Below the pieces are notes generated by a model, which saw only the letters and a program-made list of their open reading frames with translations, had not been told where the DNA came from and made no database searches. Shown in pieces: positions 289 through 56,334 of a stretch of 64,000 nt of DNA. The DNA is from a virus: the IMG/VR virus record IMGVR_UViG_3300045256_000567; one strand, given 5' to 3'. Each line of letters opens with the position of its first letter. Position 1 is the stretch's first letter. Made by a program: the position numbers and the translations under genes.

Positions 289-301
289 AGAAATATATTA
301 C

Positions 302-1533
302 AACATATGTTTGCAGAAAGCCTACGCTTTTAAGCGTAGGATGAATGCAAACAAACGCTTTGAATATGGTATAATGTTAGCAGGTAGTAATGATAAAGTC
401 TTTCAAATACCGACTGTATCCAACCAAGCCTCAGATAAAGGATTTAGAAAAAACCTTGTTTCTGTGTCGTCAACTGTACAATACTGCTTTGGAACAAAGA
501 AGGGAATTGTACAAAAACTACAAAAAGTCTATCACCTACTATGAACAAGATAAACAACTACCCAAAATAAAAACAGAGCGTCCAGAATACAAGAATGTAA
601 ATGCACAGGTTCTTCAGGATGTGCTGAAAAGGGTAGACAAAGCCTACCAAGGGTTTTTTAGGCGTATTAAAACGGGTGAAACACCTGGTTTTCCAAGGTT
701 CAAAGGTGAAAATAGGTACGATAGTTTCACCTTTCCTCAAGCAAGCTTGACAGGAATCAAGATTCAAGAAGGCAAAAACAGAGTTTTGGTTCATAGAATT
801 GGTTCTATAAAATGCAAGTTTCATAGACCGCTTAAAGGTCAAATAAAGACAGCTTCTATAAAAAGGGATGGTGATGAATGGTATGTCATTTTCACCTGTA
901 TCACAGAACCAAAGAAACTTCCTGAAAACCAAGATGCAGTTGGAATAGACCTTGGCACTAATCCAAACTTCCTAACCACCTCTAACAGTGAAATGGTTCC
1001 TGCTCCTAGGTATTTCAAGAATTCTGAAGATAGGCTTGCCAAAGCACAGAAAATAGTTTCAAAAAGAAAACCTGGTAGCAACAGAAGGAACAAGGCTAAG
1101 AAATTGGTTGCTAAAATCCACAAGAAAATAGCAAACCAAAGAAAGGATTTTCATCACAAGGTAGCAAAAGACTTGGTGAATAAATATGGAACCATAGTAC
1201 ACGAAGACCTAGATATAAAACAACTCGCCCAAACTAGAACAGCTAAAGGTGTCCTAGATGCAGGTTGGGCGCAATTCCTAGCAATACTTGCCTACAAAGC
1301 GGAAGAAGCTGGTAGTCAAGTAATAAAAGTAGATCCAAAATACACAAGCCAAGATTGTCCCGTTTGCGGTAACCGAGAAAAACATCCGCTTTGGGTACGT
1401 ACCTATACCTGCGCTAAATGCAACACAACCCTTCATCGGGATATTGCAGCAGCACAAAATATCTTGGCTAAGGCTCGGACGGAGCCTTCGCTAAATGCGA
1501 GAAGCCCAATTCTTTAGAATTGGGAGTCGTCAC
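302..1533 (+). mobile_element. IS200/IS605-family tnpB-only (IS1341-like) element, copy 1
   Basis: TTAC (298-301), 15 nt, AAAG, then LE hairpin CCTACGCTTTTAAGCGTAGG (321-340). RE is GAAG, hairpin CCCAATTCTTTAGAATTGGG (1505-1524), AGTCG, TCAC (1533). Same architecture as IS608 ends. Confidence 0.92.
390..1517 (+). CDS. tnpB: RNA-guided endonuclease TnpB (copy 1)
   Basis: N-terminal YRLYPT; RuvC motifs GIDLG, VHEDL, HRDIAAAQN; CPVC/CAKC zinc finger. Confidence 0.96.
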   Translation: MIKSFKYRLYPTKPQIKDLEKTLFLCRQLYNTALEQRRELYKNYKKSITYYEQDKQLPKIKTERPEYKNVNAQVLQDVLKRVDKAYQGFFRRIKTGETPGFPRFKGENRYDSFTFPQASLTGIKIQEGKNRVLVHRIGSIKCKFHRPLKGQIKTASIKRDGDEWYVIFTCITEPKKLPENQDAVGIDLGTNPNFLTTSNSEMVPAPRYFKNSEDRLAKAQKIVSKRKPGSNRRNKAKKLVAKIHKKIANQRKDFHHKVAKDLVNKYGTIVHEDLDIKQLAQTRTAKGVLDAGWAQFLAILAYKAEEAGSQVIKVDPKYTSQDCPVCGNREKHPLWVRTYTCAKCNTTLHRDIAAAQNILAKARTEPSLNARSPIL

Positions 1534-1574
1534 AATAGGTTTTTAGAAAGAGCATTTTTTAAGGTTTAAATCGT

Positions 1575-2375
1575 ATGTCAATAATAAAAAACTATTTTAC
1601 AAAAATTACGGAAACAAATTTTAATGAATTAGATTTTTTTAAATATCAACTTTCTCCTGAAAATTTAAAAAATAAAATATTTGAAGAGACAATTAAAAGA
1701 ATTAGCAACGATTCAATAAAATACTTTGATCTCCTAGATTGGAGTTTAGATAATTTTTCTATAGCAAAAGACAGTAATAATTGGACTATTTCTTCATACA
1801 TTAATAAAAACAAGCTTTCACTCCCACTTTTACCAACAAAAAATATTTTTTATTATGAATTGCTTCCTTTAACTACCGATAATGACTATATTTTTAATTT
1901 CATTTTTAATTCAAATGTTATAAACCCAACGTATATTTACGTATTTTTTGAAGAAAACGGTCAATATACAGATCAATTTTATTTAGATTCTAGCAGTTTT
2001 AACGATGCTGGAAATGGTCGTATTTTTATAAACGGACAGGTGTCTATTCCTAATCAAACTGGTAAATTAGGTCTTGTACTTTATAATTCATCTAAAACTA
2101 TGTTCAAAATTTATATTGATAAAATAGATAATAATTATTATTTTGTTCCCGACCTTAGTATAAATGTTTACAGCTATATAAATAATTTAAATCTTTTATA
2201 TAATTTATTTCCTATTTTTTATTATTCTAATTCTAACAATACATATTCGTATTCTTATACTATTCCGATTTCTTCCTCTTATGAAGTTTTATTAGCATCT
2301 ATACATTATAAAGATTCGTATATTCAAAAATATTATAAGACATATCTCCCGCCACAAAAAAATCCAAGTCAATAG
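1575..2375 (+). CDS. Hypothetical (possibly virion) protein
   Basis: 266-aa ORF, N/Y/F-rich, no recognised motif. Confidence 0.7.
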   Translation: MSIIKNYFTKITETNFNELDFFKYQLSPENLKNKIFEETIKRISNDSIKYFDLLDWSLDNFSIAKDSNNWTISSYINKNKLSLPLLPTKNIFYYELLPLTTDNDYIFNFIFNSNVINPTYIYVFFEENGQYTDQFYLDSSSFNDAGNGRIFINGQVSIPNQTGKLGLVLYNSSKTMFKIYIDKIDNNYYFVPDLSINVYSYINNLNLLYNLFPIFYYSNSNNTYSYSYTIPISSSYEVLLASIHYKDSYIQKYYKTYLPPQKNPSQ

Positions 2376-2378
2376 AAA

Positions 2379-2416
2379 GTGACTACTCCCAATTCTAAAG
2401 AAGTGGGAGTCGTCAC
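2379..2416. repeat. 38-bp RE-RE palindrome P1 between convergent genes; probable bidirectional terminator
   Basis: GTGACTACTCCCAATTCTAAAGAAGTGGGAGTCGTCAC; supplies the TGA stop of 2413..3510. Confidence 0.88.
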
Positions 2417-3510
2417 AAAAACCAAAAACTTTCTATGCTATGATTAATAAGATTATATACAAATATATACCAACAAGAAGTTGCAATTGAAGCAAATTCA
2501 TATATACCATAGTTTGTATCTTTTCCTATAGAGTATGGAAAAATATTCTCCTCCAGAAAATAAGATAATTTTTTAGATTCTTCATTAAATTCAATATTTT
2601 GTTTATATATAAAACTTTTTGCATAAAATGCCATGAAATAGCCACGGAACCAAATTTCAGTATTTGTGTTTGGATATCCTAAATTACTATTTAATTTTTT
2701 ATATATTATTGGAGATAGGTGACTTTTAAAGTCCCTTTCTCTAAAATATTCTTCTAAATATTTTATATTTGAATATAAATAATTTTTGTTTACTCCAATT
2801 TTATTCAAAAATATAGAACCCATAGTGTATGTATTTATATTTCCAGAATTAGAGTTTAAAATTTCTACCAATTTTTCTCCATCCCAAAAATTATTTAATA
2901 TAGAAGATTTCAAAGAATTGGCTTTCGAAAGATATGTAGGATTTTGTGTTACTGCATACACACTTTTTAAAGAAAAGTATGTGTATATGCTATCGTCCAA
3001 TAAATAAGAATTATACACATAAGTATTATCAAAAGAATTGTTTACATATACCCCATACCCTCCTCTTACCAAACCATTTTGTTGAATTTCTGAAACTAAG
3101 TAATCTGCTACAGATTTTATAAAATCTTTATTTTCGTTAGTTTGAAGTTCGTTAATAAAATTATAACTAACAGAAAGAGCTTCTAACATCCATGCAACAG
3201 ACCAATTCCTTATATATTCGTCTGAATGAAATCCGTAACAATAATAATAAAAGTTAAATGAATTTTTTGAATTTAAAAGTTTTTTAGACGTATTAAAAAT
3301 ATTAATGATATTATTTTTATAATAATCATTTTGGGTTACACGATATTCTGACACTAAAGAGAGTAATGTTGATGCTAAATTATTTAAATTAGTTTTAACT
3401 TCCTGAATGGAGCTTGTATTTATAGGAGGCGTAGGTATTGAGGGTGGAGGGGGCGGCGGGCTTCCGCAAATACTTGAACATTGTTGATATGTAATTATGT
3501 GAAGACTCAT
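2413..3510 (-). CDS. Hypothetical protein with CSSIC-polyPro N-terminus and possible (alpha/alpha)6 glycosidase-like domain
   Basis: 365 aa. NPTYLSKANSLKSSILNNFWDG and EIWFRG segments are reminiscent of six-hairpin glycosidase-like folds (weak). Confidence 0.6.
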   Translation of the reverse strand: MSLHIITYQQCSSICGSPPPPPPSIPTPPINTSSIQEVKTNLNNLASTLLSLVSEYRVTQNDYYKNNIINIFNTSKKLLNSKNSFNFYYYCYGFHSDEYIRNWSVAWMLEALSVSYNFINELQTNENKDFIKSVADYLVSEIQQNGLVRGGYGVYVNNSFDNTYVYNSYLLDDSIYTYFSLKSVYAVTQNPTYLSKANSLKSSILNNFWDGEKLVEILNSNSGNINTYTMGSIFLNKIGVNKNYLYSNIKYLEEYFRERDFKSHLSPIIYKKLNSNLGYPNTNTEIWFRGYFMAFYAKSFIYKQNIEFNEESKKLSYFLEENIFPYSIGKDTNYGIYEFASIATSCWYIFVYNLINHSIESFWFL

Positions 3511-3748
3511 AATTTTAAAAAAATTAGGCTTCTCGTATTTAGCGAAGACTTTGTCAGCGCCTTAGTCAAAACATTTTGTGCTGCTGCAATATTCCGATGA
3601 GGGGTTGTATTGCATTTGGTGCAGGTATTGGTTGTATACAGACGGTACTTTAAAGACTTGATCATTACTAAACTATATTGTATCATATTCAGAGTGCGCG
3701 TTTTCATTAACACTACACCTAAAGGTGTAAGCTTTCTGCAAACGTGTT
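3499..3748 (-). mobile_element. Internally deleted tnpB mini-element M1 (LE, fused tnpB 5'/3' ends, degenerate RE)
   Basis: TTAT at 3752-3749, LE hairpin, MIKSLKYRLY fused to TCTKCNTTPHRNIAAAQN, RE ending GAGTCTTCAC at 3499. Confidence 0.9.
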
Positions 3749-3794
3749 ATAATTTAGAAGGGAGGATGCAACGTTAAAACGCTGCTAACAACCA

Positions 3795-4259
3795 ATGAAG
3801 GTTACTTTATTAAAATTTTCAGATCCAAAAAAAGAGCAGGAATTCAATGAACAGATAGAAAATTATTCTGGTGCATTAATTGGATATTTTTTATCTTTTT
3901 ATTTAGTTGGTAGACTTTTAGAAAACGATAAATTAAAAGATAAAATTTATGAAAAATTTACATTTTTTAAAAGTAAAGAATTTTCAGAGTTTTTTTTAAA
4001 TTTAGAAGATATGATGCGTAAAGACGGCGAGGAAATTTTATCTACAGAGTCTTTAAAATCTATTAATCTTCTTACAAAAACAATAATCGGTACTTTTATA
4101 AATTTTTACCAAATTTTACTAAAAGAAAACGCGCAGATAAATTATTTAGATATAGATGAAAGTATATTGGAGTTACTTTCAGAGGGTGGAACGGACGGTG
4201 CGGAGGAGATGAAAGGAATTTTAGAAAAAATGACAATCACAAAGGCAATAGTTGCGTAG
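3795..4259 (+). CDS. Hypothetical protein
   Basis: 154-aa ORF downstream of the LE-junction TG-t-TATAAT (3745-3753). Confidence 0.75.
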   Translation: MKVTLLKFSDPKKEQEFNEQIENYSGALIGYFLSFYLVGRLLENDKLKDKIYEKFTFFKSKEFSEFFLNLEDMMRKDGEEILSTESLKSINLLTKTIIGTFINFYQILLKENAQINYLDIDESILELLSEGGTDGAEEMKGILEKMTITKAIVA

Positions 4260-4309
4260 AAAATTGTACCAGGCTTGATTTCACAGGATATAAATGGTAT
4301 ACTTTGGGC

Positions 4310-4579
4310 ATGCCTATTAAATACAACCCCTTCACAATGAAGTATGAGTTTGTTAACGAAGATTTTGAGCTTGTTCAGAACGAGTTTACTGGTCAGTATG
4401 AGTGGGGGCATCAAAAAGATTTATCTTATTCACCAAATCTCATGAAGTATTCTAAGAAAGGAAAAAAATTAGTAGAAAAATGGAATAATTTTACTAATAA
4501 ATATGAGTTTGTACCAGAAGATTGGGTTCTTAGACAGAATCCTTTTACCGGTAAGTATGAGTACGCCCCAAAAGATTAA
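4310..4579 (+). CDS. Small tandem-repeat protein (NPFTGKYE-type repeats)
   Basis: Five imperfect repeats. TTGATT-N17-TATACT promoter ends 6 nt before ATG 4310. Confidence 0.8.
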   Translation: MPIKYNPFTMKYEFVNEDFELVQNEFTGQYEWGHQKDLSYSPNLMKYSKKGKKLVEKWNNFTNKYEFVPEDWVLRQNPFTGKYEYAPKD

Positions 4580-4608
4580 CGAGCACAACAGAAATCCGTA
4601 CTCTCGCC

Positions 4609-4640
4609 GCCGCCTGTGAAGTTGACGCAGGCGGTTTTTT
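4609..4640 (+). terminator. Intrinsic terminator
   Basis: CCGCCTG...CAGGCGG stem followed by TTTTTT. Confidence 0.75.
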
Positions 4641-4701
4641 GTGGTACTGTATGTGGTACAGACACCGTCGCTGTGGCGAGTTAGATATGTGGAGGGGAAA
4701 A

Positions 4702-5286
4702 ATGGAAAAGATAAGTTTCGAATCAGATTTTGTTAAGGATTTAAATAACATAAAAAGTATCTTTAGAAATAAAATAGATGAAATACTAGACAACTATATT
4801 ATTTGTAATAACCATATTTTGTGCGTAGGAGCAGAAGAAATTTCTTTAAAACTAATAACAAATCCAAATATTTTAGCTATTTCTGATGATTCGCCCATAA
4901 TTATAACTAGGGCAAAATTTTATTTTGAAGATGATAACATATTTTTCTTAGATTCAGAGGAAAAATTTCCTCTGGAGAAATTATTTAAAAATACAGTTGT
5001 AAAAGAAATGTTTGAAGAAACAACAAATACTTTTAATTCTAAAGAATTTTATTTACAGAGATCTTTATATACTATATCTGTAAACGTATCTTCAGAAGAT
5101 TATAAAATGAATTTTTTAACTTTAGCCGATAAAGTTTTTTCTGGATCAAAATATGCTATTGAATTAGACTTGGCAGAAAAAAATGAAATTAAAGAAATAT
5201 CTATAGGAAATATATATGAAGAAATAAATCAAAAAAACATTTTTATTGTAAAATATAAAACACATCTAGAAGGTTTTAGTTTTTAG
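4702..5286 (+). CDS. Hypothetical protein
   Basis: Start reassigned to ATG 4702, after a GGAGGGG SD. Confidence 0.7.
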   Translation: MEKISFESDFVKDLNNIKSIFRNKIDEILDNYIICNNHILCVGAEEISLKLITNPNILAISDDSPIIITRAKFYFEDDNIFFLDSEEKFPLEKLFKNTVVKEMFEETTNTFNSKEFYLQRSLYTISVNVSSEDYKMNFLTLADKVFSGSKYAIELDLAEKNEIKEISIGNIYEEINQKNIFIVKYKTHLEGFSF

Positions 5287-5302
5287 AAAACTTAAAGTTC
5301 CT

Positions 5303-5836
5303 CTACAAAATTTTATATGTATAGTTAACAAAGTCATCAACTTTTTTTATTATATTATTCAAATCATCAACCTTTCCTTCAAATAATAAGTTATCATATT
5401 CATATAATTTTTGCAAAGTGTTTATTGAATATGCTATAACTGCAAGTATAAATGGCATATATAGTTTTTTATCTATTTCTAGAAATGAAAACATTTCTTC
5501 AATATCTTGTTCAAAGATAATATTTTCATTAATAGTAAATAGGTTTGCCCCTAAATAAAATAATTCATCTATTTTTATAGATTCTGCAAAAATAGATAAT
5601 TCCACAATTATCGATAATGTTTGTGCTTTTAATGACTCATATACTTTTACAGAGGGCCAATCTTCATAACTATTTTTTAATTTTTCTAAATAGACCTTTG
5701 CAAAATCTACATTTCTTGTATACAGGTTTTGTTTAATAAAAAGATGCATTTCAGAATTAAGGATATTATAATTTGGAGTTTTTGCTTCTATTGCTCCAAA
5801 TTTTTTCACCATATGCTTTAATGTTTCTTTAACCAT
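5303..5836 (-). CDS. Hypothetical protein
   Basis: 177-aa ORF coupled to the upstream gene. Confidence 0.7.
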   Translation of the reverse strand: MVKETLKHMVKKFGAIEAKTPNYNILNSEMHLFIKQNLYTRNVDFAKVYLEKLKNSYEDWPSVKVYESLKAQTLSIIVELSIFAESIKIDELFYLGANLFTINENIIFEQDIEEMFSFLEIDKKLYMPFILAVIAYSINTLQKLYEYDNLLFEGKVDDLNNIIKKVDDFVNYTYKIL

Positions 5837-6489
5837 CAGAAAATTTCCTCAAGAAAATAGTTTTTTTGAGCTAATGTGTTAATTAGCTTGTTATATTTTA
5901 CATCATACATATAAAATCCTCCTACAATATTTATATAATACGAAACTTCTGATAGATCATGTCTTATTGGATCAATGTATATGTGAATTTTTCTTTTTAT
6001 ATCTTTTGACGTTTTCTTTATAACCTCATCTAATGTTTCTTTTAAATTTCTTTTCCTTTGCTGAAACTCATGTTGTTTTATTTCTATATATACTAATAAA
6101 TATCCTTCTGACTCTACAAATATATTTCCTTGTAAACTTTTGAAAAATATTTTTGTATTTTCTCTATTTAAATTTTGAAAAATTTGTTTATCAATTTGTA
6201 TATCTAAAGAGATTAAATCTTTTTTATCATCAATATTTGTATTTTCTGAATCTATATTTTTATTAACATAAACATTTACATATCTTTTTTCTTCTGGTTT
6301 TGTAATCTTTAATTGAAATCTTTCATCTTTTAAAAAAACGTTAGATTCAAAAAATAAATTATTAAAAATTTTTTTTGCCATTAAATTGTATTGTTTGTAA
6401 AACCTTTTTAAACCTCTCTCTACACATTCTTCTTTAAATAAAATAATATCGGAAAAATTTAAAATAAGAGGTTTCTTATTTGATCCCAT
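5836..6489 (-). CDS. Hypothetical protein
   Basis: 217-aa ORF with GGAGG SD, downstream of an LE junction. Confidence 0.75.
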   Translation of the reverse strand: MGSNKKPLILNFSDIILFKEECVERGLKRFYKQYNLMAKKIFNNLFFESNVFLKDERFQLKITKPEEKRYVNVYVNKNIDSENTNIDDKKDLISLDIQIDKQIFQNLNRENTKIFFKSLQGNIFVESEGYLLVYIEIKQHEFQQRKRNLKETLDEVIKKTSKDIKRKIHIYIDPIRHDLSEVSYYINIVGGFYMYDVKYNKLINTLAQKNYFLEEIF

Positions 6490-6513
6490 TTTTTATTCCT
6501 CCAAAATTTTTAT

Positions 6514-6690
6514 AATACACGTTTGCAGAAAGCTTACACCTTTAGGTGTAGTGTTAATGAAAACGCGCACTCTGAATATGATACAATATAGTTTAGTAAT
6601 GATCAAGTCTTTCAAATACCGTCTGTATACAACCAATACCTGTGACAAAGCAGTGACGACTCCCAATTCTTTAGAATCTGGAGCCATCAC
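6514..6690 (+). mobile_element. Mini-element M2 (LE, tnpB stub, RE palindrome P2 at 6653-6690)
   Basis: TTAT at 6510-6513; LE nearly identical to M1; same CTGTATACAACCAATACCTG deletion junction; then GTGACGACTCCCAATTCTTTAGAATCTGGAGCCATCAC. Confidence 0.88.
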
Positions 6691-7057: not shown

Positions 7058-7853
7058 TTTTTAACCCCCTGCAAACTATGCTATAATTACATTCTAAACA
7101 ATTTGATCCTATTTTTTTAGGAAAATTGTTTGTTTTTATGGATTTTAATATTTCATTTATTGTTTTATTCAAAATTTTTCTCTCTGGAGAATTTTCATTA
7201 AATTTTCTAAAACTGGCAGAAAAGTTTTTAAAATTAAGCTCATAAAAGGTTGGATAATAATCTAATGAATTTAGTTTCTTTAACATTGAGGAATAAAAAT
7301 AAAATTGCAAAGACATTATAGAGCTATTAGATGTTGCTTTATCTGTATTTTTCAAATCAAAAATCACTAATTTATTGGTTTTTTTATCTAACATCACAAT
7401 ATCTATAAATCCTAAAAGAGTGATATTGTTTTTTAACTTTATTTCTAACTTTTTTTCTATTTCAACCACGTTAAATCTATCATTAATTATGGGTACTTTT
7501 TCTTTTAGTTTATTTAAAAAGTTTTTTATTTCATCTGAATTTTTAGACAATATGTAGTAATCAATATTTTCTTTACCTAAATTTACTTTTTTAGAGTTGA
7601 TAAATTTATTAAACTCATTAAATGAGTTTTCTACATTTGGGTAATCAAACAGAACCCATTTGTCCTCAATAAACTCTGCAAAAACAGAATAAAAAAGGTA
7701 ATGATATATGCTAGAAATACCTTTTGAGTTTATACTAGAATTTGTCTTTTTTATGTTACTGGCTTTCAAATAAGAATTATATGGACAAAATATGTATCCT
7801 TTAACTACAGATGGAGAAATAACAAAACCATTAAACGATATATTCTGAATCAT
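7044..7853 (-). CDS. PD-(D/E)XK RecB/Cas4-like nuclease
   Basis: GFIDIV...IFDLK motif, QFYFY, N-terminal CP and C-terminal CLECNYSIVC. Start uncertain. Confidence 0.8.
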   Translation of the reverse strand: MIQNISFNGFVISPSVVKGYIFCPYNSYLKASNIKKTNSSINSKGISSIYHYLFYSVFAEFIEDKWVLFDYPNVENSFNEFNKFINSKKVNLGKENIDYYILSKNSDEIKNFLNKLKEKVPIINDRFNVVEIEKKLEIKLKNNITLLGFIDIVMLDKKTNKLVIFDLKNTDKATSNSSIMSLQFYFYSSMLKKLNSLDYYPTFYELNFKNFSASFRKFNENSPERKILNKTINEILKSIKTNNFPKKIGSNCLECNYSIVCRGLKNVRN

Positions 7854-11790: not shown

Positions 11791-12033
11791 AGAACAGTTT
11801 GCAGAAAGCCTACACCTAAAGGTGTAGGATGAATGCAAAAATTGAAATTCTATGGTATAATAAACTTGTGCAAAAGAAGCACACCAAATCCTACAAAGCT
11901 GAAAATGCTGGTAGGTACTTGAATTATAAGATTCAAGGTAATCATCGGGAAAATAAGAAAATACCGATAATGGCTTGGACGGAGCCTTCGTTAATTACGA
12001 GAAGCCCAATTCTTTAGAATTGGGAGTCGTCAC
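11791..12033 (+). mobile_element. Non-coding mini-element M3 (LE, promoter, omegaRNA, RE)
   Basis: TTAC at 11787-11790, LE hairpin CCTACACCTAAAGGTGTAGG, RE ending TCAC at 12033. Confidence 0.9.
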
Positions 12034-20333: not shown

Positions 20334-20440
20334 GTGACGACTCCCAATTCTTTAGAATTGGGAGTTGTCACTTCATATACAAGAAATTTAGTTGCATTCA
20401 TCCTACGCATAAAGGCGTAGGTTTTCTGCAAATCAATGTT
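20334..20440 (-). mobile_element. Minimal 107-bp LE+RE element M4 (RE palindrome P3 at 20334-20371)
   Basis: TTAT at 20444-20441, LE hairpin CCTACGCCTTTATGCGTAGG, palindromic RE ending GTCGTCAC at 20334. Confidence 0.88.
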
Positions 20441-28475: not shown

Positions 28476-29703
28476 GTGACGACTCCCAATTCTAAAGAAT
28501 TGGGCTTCTCGTAATTAACGAAGGCTCCGTCCAAGCCTTAGCCAAGATATTTTGTGCCGCTGCAATATCCCGATGAAGGGTTGTATTGCATTTTGCACAG
28601 GTATAGGTACGTATCCAAAGAGGATGCTTTTCTCGATTACCGCAAACAGGACAGTCTTGGCTTGTGTATTTTGGGTCTACTTTTATTACTTGCCTACCAG
28701 CTTCTTCCGCTTTGTAGGCAAGTATTGCTAGGAATTGCGCCCAACCTGCATCTAGGACACCTTTAGCTGTTCTAGTTTGGGCGAGTTGTTTTATATCTAG
28801 GTCTTCGTGTACTATGGTTCCATATTTATTCACCAAGTCTTTTGCTACCTTGTGATGAAAATCCTTTCTTTGGTTTGCTATTTTCTTGTGGATTTTAGCA
28901 ACCAGTCTTTTAGCTTTGTTCCTTCTGTTGCTACCAGGTTTTCTTTTTGAAACTATTTTCTGTGCTTTGGAGAGTGTTTTTTCATACTTCTTGAAATACC
29001 TAGGAGCAGGAACCATTTCACTGTCAGAGGTGGTTAGGAAGTTTGGGTTAGTACCAAGGTCTATTCCAACTGCATCTTGGTTTACAGGAAGTTTTTTTGG
29101 TTCTGTGATACAGGTGAAAATTATATACCATTCATCATTCTCCCTTTTTATAGAAGCTGTCTTTATTTGACCTTCAAGCGGTCTGTGAAACTTGCATTTG
29201 ATAGAACCAATCTTATGCACCAAAACTCTGTTTTTACCTTCTTGAATCTTGATTCCTGTTACGTTTGCTTGAGGAAAAGTAAAGCTGTCATATCTTCCTT
29301 CGCCTTTGAACCTTGGATATCCTGGTGTTTCACCTTTTTTGATACGCCTAAAAAACCCTTGGTAGGCTTTGTCTACCCTTTTCAATACATCCTGAAGAAC
29401 CTGTGCATTTACATTCTTGTATTCTGGACGCTCTTCCTTCAAACTAGGTAGTTGGTTAGCTTGTTCATAGTAACCAATGCTTTTCTTGTGGGTTTTGTAT
29501 AATTCCTTTCTTTTTTCCAAAGCAGTATTGTACAGTTGACGACACAGAAACAAGGTTTTCTCTAAATCCTTGATCTGAGGCTTGGTTGGATACAGACGGT
29601 ATTTGAAGGACTTGATCATTACTAAACTATATTGTATCATATTAATAGTACGCGTTTGCATTCATCCTACACCTAAAGGTGTGGGTTTTCTGCAAACTGT
29701 TCT
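28476..29703 (-). mobile_element. IS200/IS605-family tnpB-only element, copy 2
   Basis: TTAT at 29707-29704, LE hairpin, tnpB, RE ending TCAC at 28476. Confidence 0.92.
28492..29619 (-). CDS. tnpB: TnpB (copy 2)
   Basis: Same motifs as copy 1; start set to MIKSF. Confidence 0.96.
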   Translation of the reverse strand: MIKSFKYRLYPTKPQIKDLEKTLFLCRQLYNTALEKRKELYKTHKKSIGYYEQANQLPSLKEERPEYKNVNAQVLQDVLKRVDKAYQGFFRRIKKGETPGYPRFKGEGRYDSFTFPQANVTGIKIQEGKNRVLVHKIGSIKCKFHRPLEGQIKTASIKRENDEWYIIFTCITEPKKLPVNQDAVGIDLGTNPNFLTTSDSEMVPAPRYFKKYEKTLSKAQKIVSKRKPGSNRRNKAKRLVAKIHKKIANQRKDFHHKVAKDLVNKYGTIVHEDLDIKQLAQTRTAKGVLDAGWAQFLAILAYKAEEAGRQVIKVDPKYTSQDCPVCGNREKHPLWIRTYTCAKCNTTLHRDIAAAQNILAKAWTEPSLITRSPIL

Positions 29704-34789: not shown

Positions 34790-34824
34790 CAAAATGGCGG
34801 TATTTGTATTTAAAATTGTATGTC

Positions 34825-34845
34825 TTCTGCAAATTTTGCTATAAT
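34825..34845 (+). promoter_or_regulatory. LE-remnant extended -10 promoter upstream of the portal operon
   Basis: TTCTGCAAATTTTGCTATAAT matches the LE-junction promoter pattern but has no hairpin. Confidence 0.6.
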
Positions 34846-50751: not shown

Positions 50752-50780
50752 ATTATAGCACGTTTGCAGAAAACCTACGA
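50752..50780 (-). promoter_or_regulatory. Half LE forming a TG-c-TATAAT promoter; also the guide region of tnpB copy 3
   Basis: TTAT-AGCACGTTTGCAGAAAACCTACGA directly abutting the RE at 50781. Confidence 0.75.
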
Positions 50781-51950
50781 GTGACGACTCCCAATTCTAA
50801 AGAATTGGGCTTCTCGCAAGAAGCGAAGGCTCCGTCCGAGCCTTAGCCAAGATATTTTGTGCCGCTGCAATATCCCGATGAAGGGTTGTATTGCATTTGG
50901 CGCAGGTATAGGTACGTATCCAAAGTGGGTGTTTTTCTCTGTTACCACAAACAGGACAATCTTGGCTTGTGTATTTTGGGTCTACTTTTATTACTTGCCT
51001 ACCAGCTTCCTCCGCTTTGTAGGCAAGTATTGCTAGGAACTGTGCCCAACCTGCATCTAGGATACCTTTAGCTGTTCTAGTTTGAGCAAGTTGTTTTATA
51101 TCTAGGTCTTCGTGTACTATGGTTCCATATTTATTCACCAAGTCCTTTGCTACCTTGTGATGAAAATCCTTTCTTTGGTTTGCTATTTTTCGATGTACCT
51201 TGGCAACTAGTTTCTTAGCCTTGGTTCTTCTGTTGCTACCAGGTTTTCTTTTTGAAACTATTTGTTGTGCTTTGGCAAGCCTATCTTCAGACTTCTTGAA
51301 ATACCTAGGAGCAGGAACCATTTCACTGTCAGAGGTGGTTAGGAAGTTTGGGTTAGTACCAAGGTCTATTCCAACTGCATCTTGGTTTACAGGAAGTTTT
51401 TTTGGTTCTGTGATACAGGTGAAAATGACATACCATTCATCATTCTCCCTTTTTATAGAAGCTGTCTTTATTTGACCTTCAAGCGGTCTGTGAAACTTGC
51501 ATTTGATAGAACCAATCTTATGAACCAAAACTCTGTTTTTACCTTCTTGAATCTTGATTCCTGTTTTGCTTACTTGAGTAAAGGTGAAGCTGTCATACCT
51601 ATTTTCACCCTTGAATCTTGGGAAACCAGGTGTTTCACCTTTCTTTATACGCCTAAAAAAGCCTTGGTAGGCTTTATCTAACCTTTGTAGCACATCCTGA
51701 AGAACTTGACTATGTATATTCTTGTATTCTGGAAACTCTTCCTTTAGTTTAGGAAGTTGACTATTTTGCTCGTAACGGCTAATGGTCTTTTTGGAACTTT
51801 TGTACACGTCACGTCTTTTTTCCAAAGCAGTATTGTACAATTGACGACACAGAAACAAGGTTTTCTCTAAATCCTTGATCTGAGGCTTGGTTGGATACAG
51901 TCGGTACTTGAAAGACTTGATCATTGCTGACCTTTATTATACCATATTCA
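50781..51950 (-). mobile_element. tnpB element copy 3: intact RE, no canonical LE
   Basis: RE ends at 50781; upstream TGAATATGGTATAAT promoter as in copy 1; only an LE hairpin arm remains, at 52081-52093. Confidence 0.8.
50797..51924 (-). CDS. tnpB: TnpB (copy 3)
   Basis: All RuvC and zinc-finger motifs intact. Confidence 0.96.
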   Translation of the reverse strand: MIKSFKYRLYPTKPQIKDLEKTLFLCRQLYNTALEKRRDVYKSSKKTISRYEQNSQLPKLKEEFPEYKNIHSQVLQDVLQRLDKAYQGFFRRIKKGETPGFPRFKGENRYDSFTFTQVSKTGIKIQEGKNRVLVHKIGSIKCKFHRPLEGQIKTASIKRENDEWYVIFTCITEPKKLPVNQDAVGIDLGTNPNFLTTSDSEMVPAPRYFKKSEDRLAKAQQIVSKRKPGSNRRTKAKKLVAKVHRKIANQRKDFHHKVAKDLVNKYGTIVHEDLDIKQLAQTRTAKGILDAGWAQFLAILAYKAEEAGRQVIKVDPKYTSQDCPVCGNREKHPLWIRTYTCAKCNTTLHRDIAAAQNILAKARTEPSLLARSPIL

Positions 51951-52093
51951 GGAATGTCACACTATTCAATCGCTTGTACATTATACCAAAAATTTATTAC
52001 CATTGTATTATGTGAGGGAGTCCATGTATCCCCGCTTTGAAAAGCGGGGAATTATAGCTCCCCCACACCCCCTCAATTTTTTAAAGGTGTAGG

Positions 52094-52131
52094 GTTACAA
52101 TTCCCAGTTCTTTAGAACTGGGAATCGTCAC
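52094..52131. repeat. RE palindrome P4 with compensatory substitutions
   Basis: GTTACAATTCCCAGTTCTTTAGAACTGGGAATCGTCAC; supplies the TGA of 52128..55253. Confidence 0.85.
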
Positions 52132-55100
52132 GGGTTTGGATGCAAAACAAGCACATAAATTTCATTGCTTATTGAATAGGGAAGGTTTAGCATTCTATAA
52201 CTTTGCGATGGCGTGTCAATTATAAGTTGATAAGGAATATATAAATTTTGTATAGAAGTATCTAAAATTCTTAGATTATAACAATAAGAGGTAGAAGTTA
52301 GAAAAACAGGGCGTATAAATTCATATGTACTTGAATCCAAAGGATCGTTTCTAGTATCAAAACCAGAGGATTTATTAATAATTAAGTTTGCGTCGCCATC
52401 TGCATTTAAAGCTATTATGTAATAAGTTTTTCCAGATTCAAATTTATATCCATGCGGGAAAAGTTTTTTATCACTAATAAATAGTGAATTATCGCTATTT
52501 ATATTATAGTTATTAATATCTAAAAGCAATTCATTAATTACGGCATTTTTATTACTTATTAAGTAATTAGTAACATTTAGACTAAAACTTGAAAATTTAT
52601 TTATATAATATTGATCATTAGAAATGACTTCTTCATTGTAAAGAAAATTCTCTATACATATATCTAAATGTTGAGATAAAAAAGAAAAGTAGCAAGGCAA
52701 ATAATAATTAAAATCAAAACTACTGTTTAACAAGTTTTTAAACGAAAAATTGTATGTATATATGAACGTTGCCGGAATTAAATCCTGTAAATCTTGGTTT
52801 TCAGGGTTGATAACATCAATATTAAAAACATATGGTCTAAAAACATGTACGGTACTTCTTGGAGATTTATCGGGGCTAGAAGAAAATTCGGCTAGAGATA
52901 CCCGTCCATTAAAATAGTTTAATATTTGACTAGTTGAGAGGTAATCGTTATTATTTAATTTAATATTTAAATTTAAATTTTTATCTTTAAAAACAATTGG
53001 TAAATACTCAACAAAAATAAAATCAAATACGGGGTAGGATAAAGAGGCATCATTTGTTGCCTGTGTTTTTGAAAAACTTTCACCTTTGAATTTTATTCTT
53101 ACAGAAAGCGGATCGTAAACATATGTGTCCTCGCTTAAGTATGTAGTGTATCCTCCTACGTCAATAAATGAAAAATATTCACTGTTTAATATATAAGGTT
53201 TAATATTGTTATTAACGTAATTAGACAATGGTAAATCTAAAGGAGGTATAAAATCAACTATATTATTATTTATTGATATAATATCAGTTTTTGAAGTAAA
53301 CTCATTATCAGAATTAATATTTGATGGTCCAAAATATGAGAATAATGAAAAAAATCTTGTAGGTGAATATTTGTTGCCATAATTAAATATATCAGAAAGA
53401 AATTGTAAAAACTCATTTAAGGCATTTGAGTTATTTTTTAAGGACACCAATGGAACGTGTGTAAAAACATTACGTACTATTGACAAATCCTGGTGAGATG
53501 GTAGCTGAGTTAAAAACATCATATCTTCAGATTGCCATGATGAGGAAGATACATCAACGCCTGGGTACGTTTGTGTTAAATAATTTAATGTTAAAGAATT
53601 TAAACTAGATATGAAATCATTAAAATTATTAAAATCTGGAATATCCAAAGTAAACTCTCTGGGAGTTTGATCATACGCGGGAACATACGAATATAAAATA
53701 AATCTGTTTGGGTTGTTTTTGTCGTTATTATTCTTATACAATACCACAACCGGTTTGTTGTTACTTGATAGACTTGTCAGATCAGAAAAATAAAAATTGT
53801 TTAAAACCCAAGCCTTTAAATTGCTGTAGGTATTTTTATTAAAATAATATTTTTTATCATTTTGAGCAAACTCATCCTCAACGAAAAGCTTTAGTGCTTT
53901 ATATACAAACAATCTCCCAAAATTTATAGATGGAAGACTTATAGAACCGGAATAAGATCCTAAGCTACTAGAATATGTACCTAAAGAAAGTATACTATTT
54001 ATAGTACTTGTAGAAAAATTACTTATTACATTATATATTGCGGGATAAAAATTATCTAAAAAATTTTTTGCAGTTAGGAAAATTCCCGAGTCTATTTGTG
54101 GATTTAAAAATTCAAATATACCCAATTTATTTAATGGATTTTGGTTATTTATTGTATTAAAAGAATATGTAAAATTTCCCGAAAAAGATAAATAATCTTT
54201 ATCAAAATGAAAGCAAACCTTTACTGGAACATTAGAAGTTTTTACATCAATTGTGCAATAAGTATCATTATTATTAGAAAATACAGCGCCATTATCAGTA
54301 TAAAAATCCTTAAATCCATTTTGTCCGCCTGTATTAAACCCAAAATTATTTACTTCTGGGGAGTATCCGAAAAATTTATTAGTTCCTATTGGTACAGATT
54401 CCATATTTTCAGCCGCAGTAATATTCTTAGAAAAGTTTAATGATGTTAGCGGACCTTCTGGATTTATTTTGTAAAATATTTCTTTCCCCGGAATTAATGA
54501 TAAAAAATAAAAATCATTTAAGTTATTACTATATTTACTATTCTCGTAATAAAAATTACTTATAGAAAAATTATTAATAGTAGTTTCATAAATATTATCT
54601 GAATTTGCTTTATAATTGCCGTCGTAGGTAAAAGGTAAGTATAAACTATATATGTAATATTTTGGATATATATTTTGTCCTATGCTTGGAGATACAAAAT
54701 TATAAGTTGGATCAATAGAATCATTTCCATATACAACAACAAAAATATCTATAGTAAGTATTCCTGCAAAAGAAAAACCCACATTAAACAAGTTTGTATT
54801 GTAAGTACTATCAAAAGAGCTTTCTGCCACGCCTATGGATTTATTTATATCTTGAATATTATAATTAATAGAAAAGCCGTTGTAGTAATTGTCTACAGGA
54901 TGATTATCCGGCAATTTGTCAAGTATTAAATTAACTAAACTTAAATCTACACCGGTATTACTGGGATCAATAAAAATGTACTTATTATTAATTTCATCAA
55001 AAATGGCAAATTTAGGAAGAACTTTTTCTTTAGTTAAATTGTTTAATAAAAAAGAAGAAACAACTTGCTTTAAAGTACTTTTTGTAGTTATATCAACAAA

Positions 55101-55253
55101 ACCCTTTCTTTTCCATGTCGGGGATTTTATATAATAAACATCTGGATAGGTATGTATTTTTATTGCTTCCCTATCAGGAAAAACAAAAGAAGAATTACCT
55201 ATGATATCTGGTGATGTGTATTCATTAATATCTGAACAACCTAAAGTTCTCAT
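52128..55253 (-). CDS. Large probable virion structural protein
   Basis: ~1041 aa, N/S/F-rich; true start MRTLG lies 7 nt after an LE-junction TATAAT. Confidence 0.75.
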   Translation of the reverse strand: MRTLGCSDINEYTSPDIIGNSSFVFPDREAIKIHTYPDVYYIKSPTWKRKGFVDITTKSTLKQVVSSFLLNNLTKEKVLPKFAIFDEINNKYIFIDPSNTGVDLSLVNLILDKLPDNHPVDNYYNGFSINYNIQDINKSIGVAESSFDSTYNTNLFNVGFSFAGILTIDIFVVVYGNDSIDPTYNFVSPSIGQNIYPKYYIYSLYLPFTYDGNYKANSDNIYETTINNFSISNFYYENSKYSNNLNDFYFLSLIPGKEIFYKINPEGPLTSLNFSKNITAAENMESVPIGTNKFFGYSPEVNNFGFNTGGQNGFKDFYTDNGAVFSNNNDTYCTIDVKTSNVPVKVCFHFDKDYLSFSGNFTYSFNTINNQNPLNKLGIFEFLNPQIDSGIFLTAKNFLDNFYPAIYNVISNFSTSTINSILSLGTYSSSLGSYSGSISLPSINFGRLFVYKALKLFVEDEFAQNDKKYYFNKNTYSNLKAWVLNNFYFSDLTSLSSNNKPVVVLYKNNNDKNNPNRFILYSYVPAYDQTPREFTLDIPDFNNFNDFISSLNSLTLNYLTQTYPGVDVSSSSWQSEDMMFLTQLPSHQDLSIVRNVFTHVPLVSLKNNSNALNEFLQFLSDIFNYGNKYSPTRFFSLFSYFGPSNINSDNEFTSKTDIISINNNIVDFIPPLDLPLSNYVNNNIKPYILNSEYFSFIDVGGYTTYLSEDTYVYDPLSVRIKFKGESFSKTQATNDASLSYPVFDFIFVEYLPIVFKDKNLNLNIKLNNNDYLSTSQILNYFNGRVSLAEFSSSPDKSPRSTVHVFRPYVFNIDVINPENQDLQDLIPATFIYTYNFSFKNLLNSSFDFNYYLPCYFSFLSQHLDICIENFLYNEEVISNDQYYINKFSSFSLNVTNYLISNKNAVINELLLDINNYNINSDNSLFISDKKLFPHGYKFESGKTYYIIALNADGDANLIINKSSGFDTRNDPLDSSTYEFIRPVFLTSTSYCYNLRILDTSIQNLYIPYQLIIDTPSQSYRMLNLPYSISNEIYVLVLHPNP

Positions 55254-55260: not shown

Positions 55261-55353
55261 ATTATAGCAAAGTTTGCAGAAAACTTACAAAATATGTTTG
55301 CATTCATCCTACGCTTAAAAGCGTAGGCTTTCTGCAAACATATTTTGTAAAAT
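55261..55353. promoter_or_regulatory. Nested LE cluster acting as a divergent promoter
   Basis: LE head (+) at 55266, full LE (-) from 55346, 18-bp inverted repeat at 55285-55302/55333-55350. Confidence 0.75.
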
Positions 55354-55359
55354 ATTTCT

Positions 55360-56067
55360 ATGGAAAAGAAAATTAAATTAGAACTTAAAAAGAAACTTAT
55401 AGATCTAGTATCTCAATTTGAAGTTTCACGAGATTGGGGTAGGGTTGCTGGAAATTTTGATGGACAAATTTTGTCTTACGGTCCTTTACAGTGGAATATT
55501 GGACAAAGCACTCTTTTTTACGTTTTAAAAAGGATTCCTCAAGAAGTTTTGGAAAAATATCTTGGTTCTGATTTTGTTAAAAGTTTGTCCTCAAATTCTT
55601 CATTGAGGTATTTTGTTTTACACAATATCTTAGGCAAAAATGGAAATGTTCTTCCTGGTTGGTCTAAAAAATTTTCTGATCTAGCTAAAGAGCCTTCTGT
55701 TATATCCGCATTTGTAGTTTCTGCGGAGCCTTACTTTATAAAATCTAACGATTGTTTAAATGAACTTGGTTTTACTACAGAAAGAGGAGCAGCTTTATGT
55801 TTTGACATAACTGTACAAAATGGTGGTCTAAGAAAAGATCATAAAATTTTATATACTAGGTATATAAGCACTAAAAATCCGCAAAATGAGTGGGAAAAAT
55901 ATAAAATACTAGCAAATGTAATTGCTGAATTAGCTAACCCACAGTGGAAAAATGATGTATTAAATAGAAAACTTACCATTGCACTTGGTAAGGGTTCTGT
56001 GCATGGAGTAAATATAGATTTAGAAAAAGATTTTGATATTTCTTATAATCGAACCTGGTACATGTGA
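55360..56067 (+). CDS. Probable endolysin (lysozyme-like)
   Basis: GNFDGQILSYGPLQWNIGQSTL, FDITVQNGG, DVLNRK, G.VHG motifs typical of putative phage/bacterial peptidoglycan hydrolases. Confidence 0.7.
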   Translation: MEKKIKLELKKKLIDLVSQFEVSRDWGRVAGNFDGQILSYGPLQWNIGQSTLFYVLKRIPQEVLEKYLGSDFVKSLSSNSSLRYFVLHNILGKNGNVLPGWSKKFSDLAKEPSVISAFVVSAEPYFIKSNDCLNELGFTTERGAALCFDITVQNGGLRKDHKILYTRYISTKNPQNEWEKYKILANVIAELANPQWKNDVLNRKLTIALGKGSVHGVNIDLEKDFDISYNRTWYM

Positions 56068-56244
56068 CGACACCGCACGTGACGACTCCCAATTCTAAAG
56101 AATTGGGCTTCTCGTAATTAACGAAGGCTCCGTCCAAGCCATTATCGGTATTTTCTTATTTTCCCGATGATTACCTTGAATCTTATAATTCAAGTACCTA
56201 CCAGCATTTTCAGCTTTGTAGGATTTGGTGTGCTTCTTTTGCAC
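56059..56244 (-). ncRNA. Stand-alone TnpB omegaRNA 2 (scaffold to 56079 plus guide GTGCGGTGTCGTCACATGTA)
   Basis: 56079-56256 is the reverse complement of 11856-12033; driven by TG-c-TATAAT. Confidence 0.75.
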
Positions 56245-56250
56245 AAGTTT

Positions 56251-56334
56251 ATTATAGCACAGTTTGCAGAAAGCCTACTCCTAAAATCACAGGCTTTCTG
56301 CAAACTTGTATTGTAAGAACATATAGTGTATACT
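56251..56334. promoter_or_regulatory. Back-to-back LE pair forming a divergent promoter
   Basis: TTAT-AGCACAGTTTGCAGAAAGCCT...AGGCTTTCTGCAAACTTGTATT-GTAA; rightward TTGTAT-N17-TATACT. Confidence 0.72.

Follow-up and report, generated by a model that had tools for sequence, protein, structure and literature searches.

The repeated elements scattered through this Thermus-type phage, a distant relative of phiYS40, are by their sequence anatomy a non-autonomous IS200/IS605 family with IS608 architecture, accompanied by PATE/MITE-like deletion derivatives. The phage offers an unusually rich instance of an element type already known and does not amount to a new system. As an explanation of the whole, we consider it likely that non-autonomous IS200/IS605 elements invaded the genome, with miniatures at promoters and a role in element retention. 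The window (the whole stretch of 64,000 nt that was analysed) belongs to a roughly 150-kb Thermaceae phage, and its repeats have lengths of 40-300 nt, far above chance expectation (Table 1). The comparison genome was relative G001, a 55 kb contig with ~75% DNA identity to this phage.

Table 1. Elements, element ends and associated features in the window, including the eight complete LE hairpins, four LE fragments and four two-sided RE palindromes
Feature	Position	Strand	Details
IS copy 1	302..1533	+	TTAC 298-301, then complete LE-A hairpin 310-351; inward promoter TGGTATAAT 367-375; tnpB 390-1517 (full length, Pfam domains); RE hairpin with TCAC 1499-1533
Split gene, N-terminal half	1575..2375	+	aa 4-263 of the relative's 599-aa protein (tblastn E 9e-37)
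Two-sided RE palindrome	2379..2416	.	GTGAC...GTCAC on both strands; between the convergent halves; holds stop codon of 2413-3510
Split gene, C-terminal half	2413..3510	-	aa 272-599 of the relative's 599-aa protein; phrog_37493 positions 256-585
Mini-element	3499..3748	-	LE-A, complete hairpin 3701-3742; inward promoter TGATACAAT; first ~45 nt of tnpB; 115 nt of tnpB 3'/guide-RNA region; decayed RE; third RNA cassette, decayed, 3499-3632
Outward junction promoter TGTTATAAT of 3499..3748	3745-3753	+	Faces gene 3795
Mini-element	6514..6690	+	Complete LE hairpin 6522-6563; ends in two-sided RE palindrome 6653-6690
LE outer-end fragment CTGCAAA-CTA-TGCTATAAT	7069..7087	+	Where homology with G001 stops
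Mini-element	11791..12033	+	LE-A, complete hairpin 11798-11839; promoter TGGTATAAT 11853-11861; 172-nt structured non-coding RNA; RNA cassette 11853-12033
LE+RE-only mini-element	20334..20440	-	Two-sided RE palindrome 20334-20371; complete LE hairpin 20391-20432; between tRNA-Met and gene 20455
Outward junction promoter TGTTATAAT of 20334..20440	20437-20445	+	9 nt 5' of TTG start
IS copy 2	28476..29703	-	tnpB 28492-29619 (full length, Pfam domains); complete LE hairpin 29655-29696
LE junction CTGCAAACTGTTCTATAAT of IS copy 2	29690-29708	+	5' of Erf-like gene at 29733
Decayed LE outer half (fragment) + TGCTATAAT	34816..34845	+	22 nt before gene 34868 and portal operon
Left half of LE-A (fragment), cut by copy 3	50753..50780	+	Probable right arm 52132-52147
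Outward TGCTATAAT of 50753..50780	50752-50760	-	7 nt 5' of ATG, gene 50097-50744
IS copy 3	50781..52081	-	RE 50781-50815; tnpB 50797-51924 (full length, Pfam domains); LE-B at about 52020-52081
Two-sided RE palindrome	52094..52131	.	Holds stop codon of gene 52128-55253
Solo LE-A	55262..55350	-	Complete hairpin 55297-55338; TTAC 55347-55350 (- strand); LE fragment 55262-55290
Second LE outer half + TGCTATAAT in 55262..55350	55261-55269		7 nt 5' of ATG of 1041-aa gene
Mini-element	56079..56312	-	Symmetrised LE, complete hairpin 56263-56304; TGCTATAAT 56251-56259; RNA cassette 56079-56259, its RNA identical to 11862-12033; RE

A first-pass annotation of this DNA had listed three intact tnpB genes, about a dozen left-end (LE) heads, four right-end (RE) palindromes, two non-coding omega RNA cassettes and no tnpA, and this inventory was borne out. 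Pfam domains and RuvC residues confirm the tnpB genes; the LEs comprise eight complete hairpins and four fragments; four two-sided RE palindromes were located, alongside five one-sided REs; and both cassettes are present, 100% identical from TATAAT to TCAC. Four TnpA queries (tblastn) gave no Y1 tnpA with E <= 1 in 73.4 kb (the window plus a 9.4 kb extension) of the roughly 150-kb genome.

The IS608-type character claimed for the ends also stood. In all 11 LE-A copies, a TTAY lies 17-19 nt 5' of an AAAG- or AAAA-footed hairpin, with homology ending at the TTAY, and GAAG-hairpin-AGTCG-TCAC is present in all one-sided REs, its stem covarying among 30 family members. As in IS608 and ISDra2, the hairpins are subterminal, the cleavage tetranucleotide (TTAC/TTAT, TCAC) is matched by AAAG/AAAA and GAAG, no target duplication is visible, the protein has the RuvC D/E/D residues and zinc-finger/TNB, and the RNA scaffold overlaps the tnpB 3' end and the RE. 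The LE pairing rule (TTAC/AAAG, TTAT/AAAA) is kept in 8 of the 11 LE-A copies here and is breached in three LEs in which AAAG follows TTAT; among the 7-8 independent metagenomic LE-A families it holds without exception (Fisher p ~0.002). What the earlier account of the ends overlooked is the separate left end of copy 3, LE-B, which is the type used by Thermus-phage and host copies.

The LE-A stem CCTACGC/GCGTAGG and the RE stem CCCAATTC/GAATTGGG are unlike each other, and therefore one TnpA may not handle both ends; L215, a canonical LE-A element, has identical hairpins at LE and RE. The LE-A type adjoins Y1 tnpA and tnpB in metagenomic (environmental) bacteria and borders tnpA+tnpB elements of low-GC bacteria. 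It is similar to the LE of an autonomous IS in phage YS40_Isch; that IS sits upstream of the portal operon and is missing from TMA. As far as their sequences indicate, the elements are chimeric, with LE-A and the tnpB/guide RNA/RE portion coming from different sub-families. They differ from IS608 and ISDra2 in the dissimilar hairpins, the lack of tnpA in 73 kb and the insertions at −10 boxes of a lytic-type phage, and we infer that they may be mobilised by TnpA supplied in trans. It is extremely improbable that LE is instead an ancestral phage promoter or operator motif captured by tnpB genes: although LE-B is the left end of copy 3 and of every Thermus-phage and host copy, and half motifs precede many operons, the close relative lacks the motif, the same hairpin and TTAY spacing flank Y1 tnpA in unrelated bacteria, and homology ends exactly at TTAY, which brings this reading close to refutation.

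Across Thermus, Meiothermus and Calidithermus, 80+ loci contain the RE/guide-RNA module, most of them as ~340-nt non-coding LE-B+RE elements, and phage phiLo carries three full copies, three minis and solo ends in intergenic DNA. These LE-B/RE MITEs and the elements of phiLo, TSP4 and T72 have the same RE and 3' RNA module (GGCYYGGACGGRGCCTTCG...GAGAAGCCC-hairpin-GGGAGTCGTCAC) as those described here. Copy 3 also shares LE-B, whereas copies 1 and 2 and all minis use LE-A, and the elements here are AT-rich and target TTAY rather than a TTAG-like site. LE precedes RE, the native order, in each of the five mini-elements, and two pairs share internal junctions. They resemble PATEs and IS605-derived MITEs (Dyall-Smith 2011, PMC3119063) as protein-less LE...RE elements, some with a guide-RNA gene needing TnpB from elsewhere, as in the guide-RNA-bearing PATEs described by Meers et al. 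(2023, PMC10055086); the shared deletion junctions, too, point to amplification after deletion. Unlike those, they lie in a phage genome, and identity between the two RNA copies is restricted to the stretch from the −10 box to TCAC. At gene 3' ends, the two-sided RE palindromes are similar to the REP/REPIN doublets known to derive from IS200/IS605-type ends, except that no RAYT or tnpA was seen here. The earlier proposal of a new system, in which the phage had broken an IS into reusable parts, was not supported by these comparisons, as LE+RE and LE+RNA+RE minis are ordinary PATEs/MITEs in Thermaceae and phiLo.

All three TnpB copies contain the OrfB_IS605 (PF01385), Cas12f1-like TNB (PF07282) and HTH (PF12323) domains, and RuvC residues D187, E272 and D351 are invariant and intact; this distinguishes them from the TldR repressors (PMC10705468). 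The closest solved structure is ISDra2 TnpB (8exa, E 2e-55), and TnpB proteins of Thermus phages phiLo, TSP4 and T72 show 64-66% identity to those here. With a nucleotide divergence of 8-10% among them, the tnpB copies are not products of recent transposition, and by their dN/dS of 0.17-0.19 (at dS 0.26-0.34) they are under purifying selection.

The stand-alone cassettes are putative guide-RNA (omega RNA) genes for TnpB, as suggested by a conserved 3' RNA module that ends at TCAC and has covarying stems; the 5' part of the RNA is rebuilt relative to the tnpB-embedded version. The 172-nt RNA of 11791..12033 ends in the family 3' guide-RNA module and TCAC, and gene 12049 begins 15 nt on. Over a distance of 44 kb, the identity of the two cassettes is confined to the stretch between the −10 box and TCAC, and the LE parts have diverged; this pattern is a better fit to gene conversion or selection than to LE-to-RE transposition. 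The guides matched only their own flanks, with no second target in the window, G001 or IMG/VR, and the idea that TnpB is programmed by several guides for phage-phage competition or regulation is still speculation.

Long-maintained purifying selection on tnpB, the conserved cassettes and the lack of tnpA in 73 kb would also fit full domestication, in which the elements would be immobile, the LEs promoters, the REs 3'-end signals, and TnpB with its stand-alone guides a multi-guide nuclease acting in regulation or in competition between phages, akin to a proto-CRISPR. There is a precedent in Thermus phages of the Lalka group, which evolved a TnpB-derived Cas12r-CRISPR (bioRxiv 10.64898/2026.04.20.719267); there, as here, a Thermus phage pairs a TnpB-like protein with multiple sources of guides. 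Here, however, there is no repeat-spacer array, the guides are flanking DNA, and the protein has 375 aa rather than 564 aa. With guides that match only their own flanks, and the same mini-elements occurring as ordinary MITEs in hosts and phiLo, we regard full domestication as unlikely. The most likely role of TnpB would be element retention or homing. The TAM expected for the TnpB family is TTAG-like (seen beside LE-B in hosts and other phages) and differs from the TTAY found here, which leaves it uncertain whether homing takes place at LE-A sites.

LE ends lie directly against the upstream side of −10 boxes, giving a junction sequence of TGnTATAAT at 7-27 nt 5' of start codons. Eight of the ten outward junction motifs lie at this distance before a start codon on the correct strand (binomial p ~8e-5, with a null of 0.2 that is an assumed value). 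The other side of the solo LE-A 55262..55350 has TAAAAT 8 nt before the ATG at 55360. At 20455 and 55360, G001 carries a −10 of its own at an equal distance, and at 29733 it has a −35/−10 promoter with no counterpart in this phage. The observation that LEs point outward at gene 5' ends was thereby upheld: the junctions read as extended −10 elements and sit where the relative has promoters. LE junctions probably act as promoters, and several operons have no other visible promoter, which would suit domestication. In other IS families, it is well established that outward promoter elements at the ends can drive adjacent genes; the papers searched contained no case of an IS200/IS605 left end that rebuilds the −10 box at operon after operon of a single phage.

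The three AAAG LEs on TTAT form perfect −10 boxes at which re-excision should be blocked, another point in favour of domestication. TTAT lies within the reverse complement of TATAAT, and this, together with selection against harmful insertions, explains position and orientation without domestication of the ends as expression signals. The junctions also bear on the reading that the elements are passive wreckage of an old, decaying IS invasion, with −10 boxes left over from the original phage promoters and no contribution from the elements. Where the site is TTAC, flanking DNA contains the whole −10 or a promoter belonging to the gene itself lies close by, many copies are fragments, and intergenic space is nearly all promoter or terminator. 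In the TTAT cases, however, the T at −12 and the TG at −15/−14 are supplied by the element, and the tnpB dN/dS of 0.18, the intact catalytic residues and the RNA cassettes identical across 44 kb likewise argue against wreckage, which we consider very unlikely.

RE palindromes had also been proposed as terminators. Their tails (AAAAACC, TGCTTTG, TTCTTAA) contain no T-runs, none was called as a terminator in 1-20000, and canonical terminators occur elsewhere in the phage. Without a T-run they do not fit intrinsic terminators, and this counts against a role of REs as 3'-end signals under domestication.

tnpB, RE and the CTGCAAA..TATAAT motif are all missing from G001, and the elements are therefore lineage-specific insertions. 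IS copy 2 is a simple insertion relative to G001, and the 20334-20440 element is absent from G001 in a colinear context; intergenic DNA is too diverged between the two to display a scarless empty site. Copy 3, with its Thermus-phage-type left end, is nested within an LE-A hairpin. Elements coincide with ~6-7 of the 10-11 synteny breaks (rough Fisher p 0.001). The mini-elements at 3499-3748 and 6514-6690 share an LE variant and a deletion junction and are inverted with respect to each other, and the segment between them is inverted relative to G001. In the relative, a 1063-aa gene occupies the place of 34816..34845; in this phage that gene lies at 52128-55253. Four breakpoints have no element, a point for the wreckage reading, in which the coincidence would only reflect module boundaries that tolerate insertions and rearrangements alike.

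Contrary to the earlier statement that no element interrupts a gene, the 599-aa gene of the close relative is present as two convergent halves. The ATG of the C-terminal half, 2413-3510, lies inside a decayed RE, and an element supplies both this start codon and the only visible promoter, which argues against wreckage. RE or LE remnants overlap the 3' ends of ORFs 7044-7880 (the LE fragment 7069-7087), 6671-7057 and 52128-55253, and a second partial RE end lies 15 nt beyond the 56079..56312 element, in the stop codon of gene 55360-56067. Such splitting and truncation of genes speaks against domestication.

Comparison of the sequences establishes the anatomy, lineage-specificity and family relations of the elements, their position relative to gene starts and their coincidence with breakpoints. 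Our data are consistent with a model in which the phage was colonised by a non-autonomous IS608-type family after its split from the ~75%-identical relative. The miniatures would retain the parts that work in cis, namely the LE and RE hairpins for a Y1 transposase and, in two or three of them, a promoter and omega RNA gene. Insertion would follow TTAY on single-stranded DNA, with the survivors lying antisense at the upstream edge of −10 boxes, where the LE outer end (A-N-C-A...) may rebuild TGnTATAAT and so allow the downstream, mostly leaderless genes to keep their expression; several operons may now rely on an LE-junction promoter. Inversion, translocation and gene splitting would in turn have used the repeats as substrates. 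With cis-encoded and PATE-borne guide RNAs, TnpB would most likely promote retention or homing of the elements through cleavage of alleles that lack them, among them alleles of co-infecting relatives.

A bolder reading, which we consider quite unlikely, is that LE evolved to target and rebuild −10 boxes, that operons (portal, Erf, the 1041-aa gene and others) run on transposon-derived promoters, and that the conserved TnpB paralogues and the stand-alone guide-RNA genes, equipped with promoters, form a dispersed multi-guide nuclease directed against element-free competitor phages. If true, such a dispersed TnpB system would represent a step between selfish TnpB and phage type V CRISPR such as Cas12r.

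The 64 kb examined here, from a phage of the Thermaceae, carry a known kind of element family in unusual richness: chimeric, non-autonomous members of IS200/IS605, among them PATEs that bear guide RNAs. The sequence has 29 % G+C, and because its portal protein is 50 % identical to those of the Thermus phages phiYS40, TMA and YS40_Isch, we regard it as a distant phiYS40-like phage; megablast of 20 kb of the window against the phage collection gave no matches. Its three tnpB genes encode proteins that share 90-91 % identity and an invariant RuvC triad (D187/E272/D351), and that align to the ISDra2 TnpB structures (E 2e-55). Pairwise dN/dS of 0.17-0.19 at dS 0.26-0.34 marks them out as long-standing paralogues under selection or as independent acquisitions rather than recent copies. 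Identity among the paralogues is mosaic, from 70 % to 100 % per 125-nt window, which suggests possible recombination or gene conversion between them. The nearest relatives, at 64-66 %, are in the Thermus phages TSP4, phiLo and T72. No Y1 transposase was detected in the window and a 9.4 kb extension with four different TnpA queries. Together with repeat finding and motif scans, these searches bear out the inventory of the first-pass annotation, namely tnpB genes, left ends (LE) and right ends (RE) with tnpA absent.

Coordinates of tnpB genes, left-end junction motifs, split-gene parts and elements of phage phiLo
Sequence	Feature	Position	Strand	Remark
Window	tnpB ORF, copy 1	390-1517	+	Full TnpB domain set
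Window	tnpB ORF, copy 2	28492-29619	-	Full TnpB domain set
Window	tnpB ORF, copy 3	50797-51924	-	Full TnpB domain set
Window	Split gene, N part	1575-2375	+	Matches aa 4-263 of 599-aa G001 protein
Window	Split gene, C part	2413-3510	-	Matches aa 272-599 of 599-aa G001 protein
Window and extension	Outward LE junction motif	3736, 7069, 20426, 29690, 34827, 50752, 55261, 56251, 67692		Motif scan
Window	Outward LE junction motif, weak version	297		Motif scan
phiLo (MH673673)	LE-B/RE mini-elements	45561-45674, 84096-84252, 150419-150630		Unannotated, beside three full tnpB copies
phiLo (MH673673)	Solo RE	31387, 72073, 80544		
phiLo (MH673673)	Solo LE	122932		

The main left end of the window, LE-A, is a 42-nt hairpin (TTTGCA-GAAAG-CCTACGC-loop-GCGTAGG-ATGAA-TGCAAA) present in eight complete copies and four fragments. 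TTAC or TTAT stands 17-19 nt 5′ of the hairpin foot in all 11 of 11 LE-A copies, AAAG or AAAA precedes the foot, and similarity between copies ends exactly at TTAY. There are five normal right ends (GAGAAG-CCCAATTC-TTTA-GAATTGGG-AGTCGTCAC), in which GAAG precedes the hairpin on its 5′ side and TCAC marks the boundary, and four 38-nt RE palindromes in which the RE tail GAGTCGTCAC occurs on both strands. None of the window's right ends bears the LE-A hairpin. A pattern scan of metagenomes recovered genuine LE-A hairpins from bacteria of approximately 35-45 % GC; they fall into seven or eight independent families, several of which (L163, L174, L186, L215, L225, L191 and L216) have a Y1 tnpA and tnpB directly after LE-A. 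The pairing of TTAC with AAAG and of TTAT with AAAA is kept in every metagenomic LE-A family (Fisher p about 0.002 for these families and the window combined). In L215 the RE hairpin is the same as the LE hairpin and is accompanied by GAAT...TCAA, an exact likeness to IS608. Phage YS40_Isch (MK257744) carries an autonomous IS200/IS605 element at 3650-5330 (tnpA of 140 aa, tnpB of 392 aa), directly upstream of YS40_004 and the portal operon, with an LE resembling LE-A and an RE ending GAAG...TTCAC; it is missing from that place in TMA and phiYS40. Since LE-A flanks tnpA and tnpB in bacteria and YS40_Isch has a similar LE, LE-A is a transposon end and not a phage invention, and the proposal that these ends are of the IS608 type holds. 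A scan of IMG/VR with the full LE-A pattern gave no match, and exact scans with RE and LE 16-17-mers gave chance matches only.

The other half of the chimera is of Thermaceae type. The elements of TSP4, phiLo and T72 share the RE of the window and differ in their left end, LE-B (GGGGGTGTGGGGGAGCTATAAT-hairpin-ATACATGGACTCCCCC), which within the window is found in copy 3 only; copies 1 and 2 and all miniatures have LE-A. With one genome scanned per species, the RE motif occurred at more than 80 loci, chiefly in Thermus scotoductus, T. altitudinis, Meiothermus and Calidithermus. The majority are protein-less LE-B...RE units of approximately 340 nt; they have a promoter and a highly conserved non-coding RNA, at whose end stands the 3′ module also found in the window elements. 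Compensatory changes among 30 family members affect the RE stem and one pair of a GGCYY...RRGCC stem. As this RE and 3′ RNA module recurs in Thermus, Meiothermus and Calidithermus, tnpB, guide RNA and RE derive from a Thermaceae element family, an origin that points to the host of the phage; LE-A is from another IS605 lineage. LE-A 13-mer matches in host genomes were chance, with none upstream of an RE in the correct order. The dissimilarity of the LE-A and RE hairpins is atypical, and one TnpA may be unable to move units that combine them. The approximately 340-nt MITE (LE-B, promoter, RNA of approximately 200 nt, RE; L078, L086, L096, L097, L113 and others) differs very little between species of Thermus and Meiothermus, and dozens of its copies are present in T. 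scotoductus DSM 8553 and T. altitudinis. In phage phiLo, three full copies are accompanied by three miniatures and by solo ends; all of these lie between genes and none is annotated. One mini-element overlaps the annotated small ORF phiLo_140.

Five mini-elements of the window keep the native LE/RE order. Those at 3499-3748 (-) and 6514-6690 (+) have in common an LE variant and the internal deletion junction caaccaa|tacctg, and the recurrence of the same junctions at different loci shows that mini-elements were amplified after deletion. Two others, 11791-12033 (+) and 56079-56312 (-), carry the same 172-nt RNA gene, with 100 % identity between the two copies over the stretch TATAAT to TCAC; their LE parts differ. 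Identity confined to promoter and RNA suggests conversion or selection on the RNA, which folds strongly (z = -4.85) and bears the conserved 3′ module of the family. Rfam returned nothing meaningful for the RNA cassettes (11853-12033 and 56079-56259) or for a host MITE, and at gathering threshold only two tRNAs in the window. A second partial RE end (GTGACGAC) at 56055-56079 lies 15 nt from the true RE and provides gene 55360-56067 with its TGA stop codon; it may record that this site was hit twice in succession. The ‘free omegaRNA genes’ noticed at first are indeed non-coding RNA genes, but they belong to a known class, because RNA-bearing PATEs reliant on TnpB in trans have been described (Meers et al. 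2023, PMC10055086) and phiLo has miniatures of its own.

Taking the 16 nt after each TCAC as the guide, we found further matches in the window only for the copy 3 guide, to LE-A halves; this guide is the sequence of the LE-A half that copy 3 interrupted. Self-targeting of promoters by it is unlikely: the other LE-A sites have seed (TAM-proximal) mismatches and no TTAG/TTAY-like TAM. The copy 2 guide had no IMG/VR match, and the one match to the 56079 guide, on an unrelated contig of 65 % GC, was chance. With guide targets found in neither G001, an element-free relative (IMG/VR contig 3300020567_000299), nor IMG/VR, multi-guide targeting of competitors is unsupported. Since a homing role of TnpB is established (PMC10055086), we infer instead the cutting of element-free alleles of related phages.

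G001 (55 kb, 28.5 % GC) is 70-80 % identical to the window in DNA over most shared genes. Neither tnpB nor RE nor the CTGCAAA...TATAAT motif occurs in this contig, and against its colinear background copy 2 and the mini-element at 20334-20440 stand out as plain additional DNA. The elements were therefore acquired after the lineages of the window and G001 had separated, and the LE-derived motif is not an ancestral promoter of the phage group. The tRNA-Met regions (20236-20311 in the window, 30877-31040 in G001) differ in that G001 has a second tRNA gene directly behind tRNA-Met, in whose place the window carries the LE+RE mini-element.

Outward LE junctions read CTGCAAA-N3-6-TG(Y)TATAAT, and eight of the ten motifs are followed, on the correct strand, by a start codon at a distance of 7-27 nt. 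Such spacing agrees with expression from leaderless or short-leader transcripts, which is common in Deinococcus-Thermus (PMC12340547). TTAT targets place the element boundary within the -10 hexamer (T|ATAAT), TTAC targets one base upstream of it. Because TTAT lies in the complement of TATAAT, the elements are antisense to the genes they precede. The G001 orthologue of gene 20455 has its own extended -10 at the same 9-nt distance, that of gene 55360 its own -10 about 7 nt upstream, and that of the Erf-like gene 29733 a -35/-10 promoter without counterpart in the window. In G001, an early-type promoter (TTGACA-N13-TGTGATAAGCTTA) recurs in front of two genes (about 19290-19320 and 41140-41180), whose window orthologues, 10851-11738 and 29733-30329, lack it. 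Three AAAG-type LEs on TTAT have perfect -10 boxes but break the cleavage-site rule, the pattern expected of ends that were optimised and immobilised after insertion, although n = 3. The notion of LE promoters thus fits in sequence, spacing and strand, but the activity itself is a prediction. New as a variant, it seems, are repeated insertions at -10 boxes that rebuild an extended -10, with several operons apparently dependent on a transposon end. The companion idea, that RE palindromes are terminators, fails: their 17-bp stems have no T-run and none of those within 1-20000 was called terminator-like, while canonical terminators do occur elsewhere in the phage.

Ordered homologous blocks revealed about ten or eleven synteny breaks with G001 inside the window, six or seven of them at IS-derived elements (rough Fisher p about 0.001). 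The segment between the inverted pair 3499-3748 and 6514-6690 is inverted relative to G001. The portal operon of G001 is preceded by a 1063-aa gene that here occupies 52128-55253, flanked by LE copies and an RE palindrome; before the window portal operon, half an LE is all that is left. Gene 55360-56067, close behind another gene in G001, stands alone between LE and RE. Insertions and breaks may both be simply tolerated at module borders, a reading favoured by four breaks that lack any element. Blocks 13557-15373, 18294-19567 and 19973-20178 (within 13557-20235) are inverted or translocated relative to G001, with borders free of IS-derived elements. It had been stated that no element interrupts a gene; this is wrong, because a 599-aa G001 gene is split into two convergent ORFs with an RE palindrome between their ends. 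The C-terminal half has an ATG created inside a decayed RE, downstream of the inward promoter of the 3499-3748 element. Copy 3 and an RE palindrome are nested inside an older LE-A hairpin, which gives the order of events. Logan assemblies of SRR35386017 and SRR35364766 carry the phage, and their contigs break exactly at IS-derived repeats; one 2146-nt contig appears to span approximately 1506-3651. The tight association of elements with rearrangement and gene splitting also looks new as a variant.

Overall, single-strand DNA transposons have colonised at least 13 loci in 64 kb of the compact genome of an apparently virulent phage. Informative for the role of TnpB in phages are the chimeric LE-A/RE-B structure, the long-lasting purifying selection on tnpB and stand-alone guide-RNA genes that are perfectly conserved; they may also show how dispersed guides could come before CRISPR arrays. 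The unannotated miniatures of phiLo, YS40_Isch and Thermaceae genomes make up an RNA-bearing family of MITEs with a wide distribution. The window elements, which coincide with synteny breakpoints and with one split gene, are for that reason candidates for driving the shuffling of modules in phiYS40-like phages. With its TTAT target inside the complement of the -10 box and an LE that restores the extended -10, the family has a candidate way of being tolerated; should transcript mapping bear this out, the phage would clearly exemplify in nature how a transposon end turns into a promoter for essential viral operons.
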